The notes below the pieces were generated by a model. The model saw nothing but the letters and a program-made list of their open reading frames with translations. It was not told the DNA's origin and ran no database searches. Shown piece after piece: positions 1,510 through 4,280 of a stretch of 6,464 bases of DNA. Source of the stretch: Escherichia coli (GTDB taxonomy: Bacteria; Pseudomonadota; Gammaproteobacteria; Enterobacterales; Enterobacteriaceae); NCBI RefSeq assembly GCF_003334255.1, contig NZ_QOWU01000101.1. The stretch is one strand, 5' to 3'. Within the stretch, counting starts at the first letter, position 1; each line of letters opens with the position of its first letter. Made by a program: the position numbers and the translations under genes.

Positions 1510-1929
1510 CTATGATGCGTTTTGTGCTTTCTTTTTACGGATTTCTTCGTAGATCATATTGTAATACTGTTTTTTCTCTTCAAGAGTTTTTAATAATTTA
1601 TCCGCTTCACTTTCTGGCAGTTCGTCTAAGAGATCTAAAAAAATACGTTGTCGTGGCGTTAGAACCCTTGTTTCATAACTGGAGGCTGTGTTCGTTGATG
1701 ATGAAACGATACCATCCATCCATCCCCGGGGTAACCCAAAGGACTCTTCGATAATCTCCACCATATCATCAGCGATCCGTTTTTTTCCCTTTTTCCCCTC
1801 TGGGTACAACATTCTTGATACATAAGAAGGCTCGCGCCCGATCTTTCTGGCCACGTTAACCGCTTTACCATCGCATTTCTCATCACGAATTTTGATGAGT
1901 TGCTGTCGTCTAAATTCATATTTGTCCAT
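1510..1929 (-). CDS. Prophage repressor, 139 aa: CI-type HTH N-terminal domain with a DicA-like C-terminal region
   Basis: Complete ORF, divergent from the Cro-like gene. HTH segment AVNVARKIGREPSYVSRMLYPEG. The C-terminal LTPRQRIFLDLLDELPESEADKLL resembles the DicA C-terminus (LSPKELELLELFNALPESEQ as recalled). The ATG at 1929 sits 6 nt after a TATTAT -10 candidate, consistent with a leaderless mRNA. Confidence 0.85.
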   Translation of the reverse strand: MDKYEFRRQQLIKIRDEKCDGKAVNVARKIGREPSYVSRMLYPEGKKGKKRIADDMVEIIEESFGLPRGWMDGIVSSSTNTASSYETRVLTPRQRIFLDLLDELPESEADKLLKTLEEKKQYYNMIYEEIRKKKAQNAS

Positions 1930-2029: not shown

Positions 2030-2311
2030 ATGGAAGAATTAAGAATATTTCTCAATTCTCTTTCGTCAGATGAACAGCGTATGTTTGCATGCGAGTGTGA
2101 TACCAGCATCGGTTATCTAAGAAAAGCATTGAGTAAAGGTCAAGTGTTAGGGGCATCGTTATGTGTCCTTATTGAGCGAGCCAGTAATGGTGAAGTTACA
2201 CGTCAGCAACTAAGGCCTTTTGATTGGATGAATATTTGGCCCGAGCTGGAAGATACCAAAACGTTAACACAACCACTTTCTAGGAGCTTGATTCATGAAA
2301 ATCAAGCATGA
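2030..2311 (+). CDS. Cro-like transcriptional regulator, YdaS family, 93 aa
   Basis: SD TAAGGAG 5 nt upstream of the ATG. Divergent from the repressor. The segment ASLCVLIERASNGEVTRQQLRPFDW resembles Rac YdaS as recalled (CPAIERATRGEVLCEELRPDIDW). Confidence 0.8.
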   Translation: MEELRIFLNSLSSDEQRMFACECDTSIGYLRKALSKGQVLGASLCVLIERASNGEVTRQQLRPFDWMNIWPELEDTKTLTQPLSRSLIHENQA

Positions 2312-2720
2312 ACACATCCGCATGGCGATGAATGTCTGGGCGCATCCGGACGGCGAAAAAGTACCGGCTGCGAAAATTACCAAAGCGTATTTCGAGCTGG
2401 GAATGACGTTCCCGGAACTGTACGACGACAGCCATCCGGAAGCCCTGGCTCGTAATACCCAGAAAATTTTCCGTTGGCTGGATAAAGACACCCCTGATGC
2501 TGTTGAAAAAATTCAGGCTCTGTTACCGGCGATCGAAAAGGCAATGCCGCCTCTGCTGGTGGCCCGTATGCGCAGTCACAGCTCTGAATATTACCGTGAG
2601 ATCGTCGAACGGAGGGATCGGCTGGTGAAAGATGTGGATGATTTTGTCGCAGCGGCGATCGCCTGGGGCACCCTGACTAACAGTGGTGGTCAGCCTGGTA
2701 ATGCTGTTGTCGTGCATTGA
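2295..2720 (+). CDS. ydaT: YdaT-family protein (CII-like regulator, also annotated as toxin YdaT), 141 aa
   Basis: Starts MKIKHEHI and ends VVH, with an internal KIQALLPAIEKA motif, as in Rac YdaT from memory. GGAG lies 8 nt upstream. The start overlaps the end of the Cro-like gene by 17 bp. Confidence 0.8.
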   Translation: MKIKHEHIRMAMNVWAHPDGEKVPAAKITKAYFELGMTFPELYDDSHPEALARNTQKIFRWLDKDTPDAVEKIQALLPAIEKAMPPLLVARMRSHSSEYYREIVERRDRLVKDVDDFVAAAIAWGTLTNSGGQPGNAVVVH

Positions 2721-2788: not shown

Positions 2789-3826
2789 ATGGCTAATGCC
2801 TGGCTCAGATTGTGGCATGACATGCCAAATGATCCCAAATGGCGAACCATTGCCAGGGTCTCAGGACAGCCAATCGCAACAGTGATGGCGGTGTATATCC
2901 ACCTTCTGGTGAGTGCGTCACGAAATGTCACGACATGTCACGGCGTGTCACTACGTGGTCACATTGATGTCACGACGGAAGATTTAGCAAGTGCGCTTGA
3001 TGTGACGGAAGACGTAATTGATTCAATTTTGCATGCAATGCAGGGGCGGGTTCTGGATGGTGACCTTATTTCCGGATGGGAAAAACGTCAGGTGCTGAAA
3101 GAGGACAATGGTAACGTTTCGCAAACGGCAAAATCCCCGGCAGAGCGCAAGAGAGCGCAGCGGGAGCGCGAAAAGCTGCGGAAATATGATGCTGATTGTC
3201 ACGATGAGTCACGACGTGTCACGCATCTGTCACGACAAGTCACGACAGATAAAGATACAGATACAGAATTAAACCCCACACATAACGCGCGCATGCGCGA
3301 GAGTGCTCCAACCGGTGAGTCGCATGGTGCGCCGTTGCAGACAGCCGAACCTGAATACCTGGACGGCCTGAGCGAACCGATCGGGAAATTTTCGATGACT
3401 ACTGTCTGGCAGCCGTCGTCGGATTTTCGACAACGGGCAGCAGTGTGGGGTATGGCTCTGCCTGAGCCGGAATTTACACCTGCTGAGCTTGCCGCATTCC
3501 GGGATTACTGGATGGCGGAGGGGAAGGTTTTCACACAGGTTCAGTGGGAGCAGAAATTTGCCCGCCACGTGCAGCACGTCAGGACACAGGTAAAACCAGT
3601 CAGCAAGGGGGTAAGCCATGCAGCATCAGGTGGCACGGCATCACGGGCAGTTCAGGAAATCCGGGCAGCACGCGAACAGTGGGAACGAGACAACGGATTT
3701 ATCAGCAACGGAAATGGCCTGGAAGCTGTGGGAGCTTATGGGGGAGGTGTATTCGAACCGCTGGACTCAGAAGAACGGGGCCGCACCTTCGAAGCTCTGG
3801 ATTGCCCAGATTGGCACGATGACTGA
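2789..3826 (+). CDS. Phage replication initiator (lambda O-like, iteron-binding replisome organiser)
   Basis: Long ORF immediately upstream of the P-like gene. Two arrays of GTCACG iterons are embedded in its coding sequence, as in lambda O/ori. ATG 2789 is preceded by GAGG; the GTG at 2783 is an alternative start. Confidence 0.8.
   Translation: MANAWLRLWHDMPNDPKWRTIARVSGQPIATVMAVYIHLLVSASRNVTTCHGVSLRGHIDVTTEDLASALDVTEDVIDSILHAMQGRVLDGDLISGWEKRQVLKEDNGNVSQTAKSPAERKRAQREREKLRKYDADCHDESRRVTHLSRQVTTDKDTDTELNPTHNARMRESAPTGESHGAPLQTAEPEYLDGLSEPIGKFSMTTVWQPSSDFRQRAAVWGMALPEPEFTPAELAAFRDYWMAEGKVFTQVQWEQKFARHVQHVRTQVKPVSKGVSHAASGGTASRAVQEIRAAREQWERDNGFISNGNGLEAVGAYGGGVFEPLDSEERGRTFEALDCPDWHDD
2915..2978. 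repeat. Iteron array 1: six direct repeats of (t)GTCACGAc at 10-11 bp spacing
   Basis: GTCAC begins at 2917, 2927, 2937, 2947, 2958 and 2969, i.e. one helical turn apart. Confidence 0.7.
3196..3248. repeat. Iteron array 2: five direct repeats of (t)GTCACGAC at 10-11 bp spacing, followed by an AT-rich segment
   Basis: GTCAC begins at 3198, 3208, 3218, 3229 and 3239. The AT-rich stretch AGATAAAGATACAGATACAGAATTAAA (3247-3273) and the 12-bp palindrome CGCGCATGCGCG (3288-3299) follow. Confidence 0.7.
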
Positions 3827-4280
3827 ACAGCAAATCCGGCTGGTCTGCCGTCAGTGCATGGACCGCTGCCGGGCGGGTGAAACGTGGCCCCCAGACCTGG
3901 CTGAGTTTGTTGCACTGATTTCGGAGAGTGGGGCAAATCCATTTGGTCTTACGGTGGATGCAGTGATGGAAGAGTACCGGCGCTGGCGCAATGAATCCTG
4001 GCGATACGACGGGAGTGATAAATACCCGTGGCCACAGCCTGTGCTGTACCACATCTGCCTCGAAATGCGTACCAGAGGGATTGAGCGCCAGATGACGCAG
4101 GGTGAGTTAAAACGACTTGCGGAACGGCAACTGACGAAATGGGCAAAGCATGTTGGTAACGGGATGAGTGTTCCGCCAGTGCGACGACAACTGGAAGGGG
4201 CGAAACACCCGCAAGGGCCAACGCCAATTGAACGGCTGAAACAGGAATACGAACGCCGGAAGGCAGCTGGTTTTATTTGA
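3714..4280 (+). CDS. Replication protein P-like (DnaB helicase loader); start ambiguous
   Basis: The C-terminal two thirds resemble lambda P as recalled (YPW motif; PPDLAEFVAL versus PSPGQFVAW; TMTEQQ versus TTMEQV). The P-like frame is open back to 3618. Candidate starts: ATG 3618 (SD AAGGGGG, giving 220 aa), ATG 3714, ATG 3738, and ATG 3819 (ATGACTGA overlap with the O stop). The stop is at 4278-4280. Confidence 0.75.
   Translation: MAWKLWELMGEVYSNRWTQKNGAAPSKLWIAQIGTMTEQQIRLVCRQCMDRCRAGETWPPDLAEFVALISESGANPFGLTVDAVMEEYRRWRNESWRYDGSDKYPWPQPVLYHICLEMRTRGIERQMTQGELKRLAERQLTKWAKHVGNGMSVPPVRRQLEGAKHPQGPTPIERLKQEYERRKAAGFI

Follow-up and report, generated by a model that had tools for sequence, protein, structure and literature searches.

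A candidate two-array iteron origin inside the replication initiator gene of an Escherichia coli lambdoid prophage

Background

In phage lambda, the replication origin, ori, is situated in the central part of gene O and comprises iterons together with an AT-rich tract (PMC7466680). Here, we analyze a 6464-bp stretch of Escherichia coli DNA (contig NZ_QOWU01000101.1 of the RefSeq assembly GCF_003334255.1; hereafter, the window), which matches, at 100% identity, a dicB/DicF-bearing lambdoid prophage from E. coli JE86-ST05 and in which the gene of a predicted replication initiator contains two arrays of a short direct repeat, GTCACG. We estimate at roughly 75% the probability that these arrays are the iterons of the prophage replication origin and are bound by the product of the very gene in which they lie. 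Among the closest known systems is lambda ori together with O and P, including the six-iteron origins of the Shiga toxin (Stx) phages, and by analogy the present locus would work in the same way, albeit outside that family.

The likeness to lambda extends over several levels. The candidate origin is contained in the initiator gene, where it occupies the linker that joins the DNA-binding domain at the N-terminus to a partner-binding domain at the C-terminus; direct repeats are followed, along rightward transcription, by an A-rich, purine-skewed tract and then by an inverted repeat, as in lambda (PMC7466680); a P-type helicase loader is encoded immediately downstream; and the N-terminal domain and its sites are exchanged as a single module. 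The differences are equally clear. The N-terminal domain of the initiator is not homologous to lambda O, the C-terminal domain is DnaT-like, the repeats are 6-bp asymmetric cores, one per 10-11 bp, in contrast to the dyad-symmetric units of 18-19 bp in lambda that are ~ 20-24 bp apart, and there is a second array ~ 230 bp upstream, within the region coding for the DNA-binding domain.

Phage SPP1 provides another point of comparison. Its initiator, G38P, likewise lacks an AAA+ domain; it binds direct repeats in its own gene, beside an AT-rich unwinding element (PMC5737612), and its binding sites form two separate sets, oriL, which is located in gene 38, and oriR (PMC5737612, PMC6316719); the second gp38-binding locus, oriR, has been proposed to stall replication forks and to trigger the theta-to-sigma switch (PMC6316719). 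However, no sequence homology with G38P is detectable (hhalign probability 0.3), and the second site of SPP1, at a distance of ~ 13 kb, is accompanied by an AT-rich region of its own, whereas the second array of the present locus lies in the same gene, at a distance of 230 bp, and lacks an AT tract. In three complete phage genomes of the family examined here (~ 40 kb each), the two arrays are the sole phased clusters of cores on either strand, without any distant cluster.

Two separated sets of an initiator-binding repeat in or near a rep gene, one being the origin and the other accessory, are also found, as functional analogies, in P1, F and P4. In P1 (incC and incA) and F (incB and incC), the two iteron sets flank rep, one serving as the origin and the other as a control locus; the incA or incC iterons beside the rep genes titrate or handcuff the initiator. 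In phage P4, the second set, crr, is a required looping partner of ori. The iterons of these replicons are 8-22 bp long and intergenic, and the Rep proteins are unrelated to the initiator considered here; by contrast, both sets of sites described below lie inside an open reading frame (ORF) and dictate part of the protein sequence. An iteron origin inside an initiator gene is a classical kind of element. What is new is the bipartite in-frame layout, conserved over a large uncharacterized family, the shortness of the GNNACG-type cores and their switching from lineage to lineage, and an array that fixes the sequence of a loop within its own presumed reader domain.

Two phased arrays of a short core

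There are 10 copies of GTCACG in the window, compared to 2.98 expected, a number not reached in any of 200 dinucleotide-preserving shuffles, and 9 of the 10 fall within positions 2917-3244. Together with two degenerate cores (GTCACT at 2947 and GTCACA at 2958), this brings the total to 11 GTCAC cores, every one on the plus strand. The six cores of array 1 start at 2917, 2927, 2937, 2947, 2958 and 2969 (spacing 10, 10, 10, 11 and 11 bp), and the five cores of array 2 start at 3198, 3208, 3218, 3229 and 3239 (spacing 10, 10, 11 and 10 bp). A recount thus reproduced the two arrays of six and five copies, 10-11 bp apart, that had been described in the initial annotation of this DNA. The 8-bp consensus GTCACG(A/G)C given there is too broad, as its “(A/G)C” extension fits only 7 of the 11 copies. 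Within the GTCACG class of the family, only these six base pairs are conserved and the four spacer bases are free; the conserved core is asymmetric and is not part of a dyad unit of 18-19 bp. The mean unit spacings in the family are 10.3 and 10.2 bp, so that protein monomers bound to successive cores would lie on one face of the helix.

Array 1 is followed by a single inverted core (Table 1), which is present in 81 of the 83 loci of the GTCAC class. The third position of the Val codon GTG that it overlaps is unchanged in 68 of 68 sequences. There is no consistent counterpart in other core classes, and the significance of this site is uncertain.

Table 1. Coordinates of the features discussed in the text (positions in the 6464-bp window)
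Feature	Position	Strand	Basis or location
Array 1, six GTCAC(G/T/A) cores	2917..2974	+	codons 43-62, end of H1 and H1-H2 loop
Array 2, five GTCACG cores	3198..3244	+	codons 137-152, disordered inter-domain linker
Single inverted core (GTCAC on bottom, GTGAC on top strand)	3002..3006	-	33 bp past the last array 1 core
AT-rich, top-strand-purine tract (ACAGATAAAGATACAGATACAGAATTAAA...), candidate DNA-unwinding element	3245..3285	+	directly after array 2
GC-rich perfect palindrome CGCGCATGCGCG, 12 bp	3288..3299	.	borders the AT tract
Repeat-bearing initiator (“O-like”) gene, 345 amino acids (aa)	2789..3826	+	ORF list
N-terminal winged-helix DNA-binding domain (aa 1-100)	2789..3088	+	predicted fold
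Basic helix AERKRAQREREKLRKY (aa 117-135)	3137..3193	+	AlphaFold2 (AF2) models; just upstream of array 2
DnaT-like single-stranded DNA-binding domain (aa 201-266)	3389..3586	+	Pfam PF17948
P-type helicase-loader gene	3819..4280	+	8-nt overlap with the end of the initiator gene
cI-like repressor gene	1510-1929	-	ORF list, gene order
cro-like gene	2030-2311		ORF list, gene order
YdaT/cII-like gene	2295-2720		ORF list, gene order

The cores are constrained as DNA

The first G of the cores falls on codon positions 3, 1, 2, 3, 2 and 1 in array 1 and on positions 2, 3, 1, 3 and 1 in array 2, and, depending on the frame, the hexamer contributes to residue pairs such as SR, VT and CH. Because the period of 10-11 bp takes the core through all three frames, the repeat exists at the DNA level and there is no peptide repeat, in agreement with the initial annotation, according to which the repeats were only loosely mirrored in the protein. 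Across the family, cores are distributed over the three frames, with counts of 520, 485 and 442.

For the analysis of synonymous sites, we used 70 distinct homologues of the GTCACG class and considered codons of the four-fold type in which the amino acid is conserved. The entropy of the third position is 0.13 bits within the cores (7 codons) compared to 1.36 bits at the 35 remaining codons of this type in the N-terminal domain (Mann-Whitney p = 4e-5). Thus, rather than decaying freely at synonymous sites, the cores are nearly invariant. The same pattern is seen directly in alignments of the homologues, where the cores are fixed and the bases between them vary. It is the DNA sequence of the repeats, rather than the encoded peptide, that is under constraint.

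The two-array layout is the norm in a large family

Our survey set consists of 179 non-redundant homologous loci from phages of E. coli, Pseudomonas, Aeromonas and Ralstonia and from IMG/VR contigs. The first locus scan gave only relatives with 88-100% identity, and the protein homologue search returned mainly short fragments; in rescans, distant members were placed first in the query alignment, and two rescans of IMG/VR added 160 loci. Phased arrays were identified in 178 of the 179 loci, with both arrays in 152, array 2 alone in 25 and array 1 alone in 1, that is, array 2 is present in 177 loci. The two-array layout is typical of the family rather than peculiar to this prophage. The mean number of phased copies per gene is 8.1, compared to a mean of 1.6 and a maximum of 4 in codon-shuffled sequences.

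The cores form six classes, all ending in ACG: GTCACG (86 loci), CGAACG(C) (49), GTGACG (17), GCAACG (13), GTAACG (7) and GAAACG (6). All 92 loci at close or moderate distances from the present one carry both arrays; array 1 comprises 4-6 cores and array 2 comprises 3-6, and a 21-bp in-frame indel found among homologues corresponds to two repeat units. In E. coli phages Evi and 204576, Pseudomonas phages Marin and phita81A, and Aeromonas phage pAEv1818, the N-terminal domains of which are 60-85% identical to the present one, the GTCAC arrays are retained at the same two positions in the gene, even though the C-terminal parts differ and so do the helicase partners. In Ralstonia phage Hennie (38% identity), the arrays at these positions consist of GCAACG cores. 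Overall, both arrays are kept in place in genes whose proteins are as little as ~ 35% identical, and a change of core affects the two arrays of a genome together. The arrays display the generic traits of iteron origins: they are helically phased direct repeats, their conservation is at the DNA level, and they co-vary with the lineage of the initiator.

In one locus of the GTGACG class (L122, positions 1330-1800), array 1 has grown to ~ 11 cores, many of them in the form of the palindrome GTGACGTCAC. The frame remains open, and the winged-helix loop is longer by tens of residues.

The initiator gene is common in E. coli, with a match in 1293 of 5426 complete genomes and a full-length gene in 658 of these; O157:H7 genomes carry several copies each.

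Array 2 is embedded in a lambda-like layout

The segment immediately downstream of array 2 is AT-rich, as noted in the initial annotation: positions 3247-3273 are 78% AT and 74% purine on the top strand (76% and 72%, respectively, for 3245-3273), compared to 46% AT in the gene. A period-6 repeat was detected in this tract. In the family, the 40 nt past array 2 are 64% AT, compared to 43% in the gene (172 of the 177 loci); their purine content on the coding strand is 70%, compared to 56% (169 of 177). The perfect 12-bp palindrome noted in the initial annotation is also present. In close E. coli homologues, it is altered yet still palindromic (CGCGCACGTGCGCG, or CGCGCGCG after a 6-bp deletion). 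A perfect GC-rich inverted repeat with arms of at least 6 bp was found 41-98 nt past the last core of array 2 in 35% of the loci, compared to 4.5% of control windows, an approximately 8-fold enrichment. Between lineages, these inverted repeats are unrelated in sequence (CGCGCATGCGCG, CCCCCCTGAGGGGGG, TCGCGCAGGCGCGA, AGGCGCTTCCGCGCCT and others).

The order of array 2, AT tract and GC-rich inverted repeat is that of lambda ori, as read from the lambda record, in which ACACAAAAGACACTATTACAAAAGAAAAAAGAAAAGATTATT comes after the four annotated iterons and precedes the inverted repeat GTCAGAGAATTC-TGGC-GAATCCTCTGAC. Searches of positions 2915-3299 identified no Rfam family and no excess of promoter-like sites.

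Repeats were also observed behind array 2. The 12-bp unit ACAGATAAAGAT (3245-3267) is present in one or two extra copies in close E. coli homologues (L002, L003 and L006), and an (A/C)AGA(T/G)A motif recurs in this location in distant lineages (L012, L013 and L122).

The initiator combines a predicted winged helix with a DnaT-like domain

The product of the repeat-bearing gene, labeled “DnaT-like ssDNA-binding domain-containing protein” in RefSeq, matches replication initiation families of PHROG with E-values down to 1e-118. Its only Pfam match is to DnaT (E = 1.7e-16). The score against the NCBIfam DnaT model, 93.4 bits, is under the equivalog cut-off of 201 bits, and we rejected an identification with full DnaT (primosomal protein I), with which just the DNA-binding domain is shared.

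The N-terminal domain is predicted to consist of a three-helix bundle and a beta-hairpin wing, that is, to adopt a winged-helix fold (H1, aa 29-45; H2, 63-70; H3, 74-84; wing, 85-96). An AF2 model built from 6 sequences (predicted local distance difference test score, pLDDT, 62), with which Foldseek returned no significant match, was replaced by a model built from 125 sequences; the loop encoded by array 1 is of low confidence in both. Nothing significant was found for this domain in Pfam and NCBIfam, and a PDB sequence search using profiles of the domain yielded no match. Identity to the N-terminal domain of DnaD and to generic winged-helix domains is 7-22%, a likeness at the fold level only, so that membership in the DnaD family is not established. 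Homology to lambda O was rejected (hhalign probability 0.04 for the 125-sequence profile against lambda O, and no Pfam match, to Phage_rep_O or any other family, in the N-terminal part), as was homology to SPP1 G38P and membership in Phage_rep_org_N (PF09681; E = 0.034 in one of 6 sequences, none of which reaches 0.001). NCBI labels fragments of this initiator “phage replisome organizer”. Hence the designation of the gene as “O-like” stands insofar as the gene encodes a replication initiator, but not in the sense of homology to lambda O.

Array 1 lies in the loop between H1 and H2, and the array 2 module, including the AT tract and the palindrome (codons 137-171), lies in a disordered linker, after the winged helix and basic helix (aa 1-135) and ahead of the DnaT-like domain. 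Both sets of sites are therefore located in segments that tolerate almost any protein sequence. The strongest covariation with the core class is seen at residues 121 and 124 of the basic helix (K/Q, A/W, S/-, V/F, T/Y), a signal that is confounded by phylogeny. Specificity residues sought by mutual information were likewise dominated by core-encoded loop residues and confounded by phylogeny, so that none can be claimed.

Some short homologues of the N-terminal domain (~ 170-190 aa; P0040, P0042, P0050, P0057, P0072 and others) have HNH endonuclease domains (PF01844, PF14279) in place of the DnaT-like C-terminal part.

The N-terminal domain and its sites as an exchangeable module

In megablast searches, Rac-type (Rac-SA53) genes match the window only from position 3247 onward and phage 606R7 matches it only up to position 3267; these breakpoints, between initiator genes that differ in their C-terminal halves, place the exchange junction in the AT-rich tract. 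Judging by these matches, the candidate origin doubles as a module-exchange junction, and the N-terminal domain appears to move together with its sites as one module. This resembles the situation in lambdoid O genes, where the N-terminal half and ori set the specificity and the C-terminal half matches P.

The loader encoded downstream of the initiator, named “replication protein P” in RefSeq, matches PHROG 109 (“P-like helicase loader”, E = 5e-61) and is a distant homologue of lambda P, with 25% identity (BLASTP, E = 1e-6). Other members of the family are paired with different partners, for example, primase/helicase or DnaB.

A model of origin function and its alternatives

Overall, the proposal of the initial annotation that this region is a candidate phage origin gains support from the synonymous constraint, the conserved arrays, the order of elements shared with lambda ori and the adjacent P-type loader. 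We suggest the following scenario. The winged-helix domain of the self-encoded initiator would bind the GTCACG cores, one monomer per core. Array 2 would be the origin core, where a filament of initiator on the five sites would melt the A-rich tract at 3245-3285, aided by supercoiling and by rightward transcription through the gene, and the GC-rich palindrome would bound the resulting bubble. The DnaT-like domain would then engage single-stranded DNA and/or the P-like loader, bringing in the host DnaB as in lambda. Array 1 would recruit extra initiator and cooperate with array 2, through either a higher local concentration or a loop. Melting and helicase loading are inferred from the anatomy of the locus and from lambda and SPP1; the identity of the protein that binds the cores and the role of array 1 are likewise a matter of inference. 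Array 1, which has no AT tract and is absent in 25 lineages but is constrained at synonymous sites, looks like an accessory second set of sites, with cooperative loading or looping as our first choice for its role.

Several observations do not sit easily with this scenario. Array 1 is followed by a segment of ordinary composition (48% AT in the next 40 nt), and given that it is also missing from 25 loci that have array 2, it is not essential to the mechanism. The distance between the arrays ranges from 127 to 278 bp across the family, and a test of helical phasing between them gave a Rayleigh R of 0.27-0.37 with non-independent distances. An inverted repeat in which each arm has 6 bp or more is present in only 35% of the loci. 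Across core classes, helix 3 and the wing are alike and do not point to a reader of the variable core positions. Our literature searches yielded no paper on this initiator family.

A stronger version of the scenario, in which array 1 is an obligatory partner and the initiator bridges the ~ 230 bp in a loop or wrapped complex without which the A-rich tract is not melted, seems to us doubtful. A serious rival, to which we assign a comparably low probability, is that only array 2 is the origin and that array 1 is a control element, acting by titration or handcuffing, by an autoregulatory block of transcription or translation, or as a fork barrier. Such a role would account for the lack of an AT tract and the dispensability of array 1 in 25 lineages, as well as for its location inside the coding region of the initiator itself, upstream of array 2 along transcription, and the fork barrier proposed for SPP1 oriR is a precedent (PMC6316719). 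However, phage lytic replication has little to gain from copy-number control, and the orientation and phasing that array 1 shares with array 2, together with its retention in 85% of the loci, fit a positive role equally well.

It is improbable that leftward (antisense) transcription ends at an intrinsic terminator made up of the palindrome and the T-rich strand opposite the A-rich tract, a reading that concerns the palindrome only and is compatible with the origin. Three terminator-like sites were detected on the minus strand (3302-3274, 3299-3286 and 3291-3277), compared to 0.6 expected in shuffles, and the hairpin of phage Hennie, GGCGC-GGAA-GCGCC, is followed by a T-rich run on that strand. 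Nevertheless, both in the window and in the Pseudomonas phages, the T run is broken and weak; there is no known leftward promoter on the downstream side, and lambda ori has the same element without any terminator role having been assigned to it.

There is very little to recommend the view that another protein, either the upstream YdaT/cII-like protein or a host factor, binds the cores for regulation rather than for replication. A YdaT-like gene precedes the initiator gene in E. coli, Pseudomonas and Aeromonas phages, but Ralstonia phage Hennie and a Manatee Spring contig retain the arrays without an annotated YdaT-like gene upstream. Furthermore, the class of the core tracks the lineage of the N-terminal domain, and iterons, AT tract and palindrome together make up the layout of an origin; a host factor would in addition leave unexplained the six core classes, several of which occur within related hosts.

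Finally, repeats devoid of site function, be they tandem repeats prone to slippage or the reflection of a repeated peptide at the DNA level, are almost certainly not the explanation: the variation in copy number among close relatives and the two-unit indel are what slippage would produce, but this interpretation is contradicted by the spread of the cores over all three frames and by synonymous sites that are invariant in cores while spacers vary, and both arrays persist in highly diverged proteins with the core changing in concert.

Genomic neighborhood

Upstream of the initiator gene, the window contains the cI-like, cro-like and YdaT/cII-like genes (Table 1), and the next gene after the loader is a DUF1627 gene. 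A full-length DicF antisense small RNA was identified at positions 54-105 on the minus strand (Rfam RF00039, 70.1 bits compared to a gathering score of 48); in the matching JE86-ST05 prophage, DicF adjoins dicB. A perfect 16-bp inverted repeat, TACCCATAGGTATTTA / TAAATACCTATGGGTA, with a 5-nt spacer, is located at 1431-1467, in the gap that separates the 3' end of the cI-like gene from a leftward ORF (1093-1437, starting at 1437). Inverted repeats based on GGTAAA/TTTACC are found at 1930-2003, between the divergent cI-like and cro-like genes (for example, 1947-1966 is 80% complementary to 1984-2003); probably, these are immunity operators.

Conclusions

The replication module described here is widespread, occurring not only in E. 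coli but also in phages of Pseudomonas, Aeromonas and Ralstonia and on hundreds of contigs from IMG/VR, and represents a large family without earlier study. The origin appears to be undescribed so far, and the DNA-binding domain of the initiator has no Pfam family. In the literature, we found no description of GTCACG iterons or of an origin of this family, although subscription journals were thinly covered and an earlier description is possible.

In phages related to this one, Shiga toxin output depends on prophage induction and replication (PMC7466680), and a defined origin provides a handle on the induction and replication of prophages in enterohemorrhagic E. coli. The core classes, which differ at two or three positions, amount to natural specificity classes of initiators and iterons. 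The family is also a clear case of a cis-acting DNA element that sets both the sequence and the length of a protein loop, one that grows along with the array, as in the locus with 11 cores (L122). If array 1 is an obligatory partner of array 2, the reading that seemed doubtful above, then, because array 1 encodes a loop of the DNA-binding domain of the initiator, any change of iteron specificity among the GNNACG classes would necessarily rewrite part of the protein that reads it. This would make the family self-referential, with site and reader co-evolving, and the specificity of the origin would be amenable to re-engineering.

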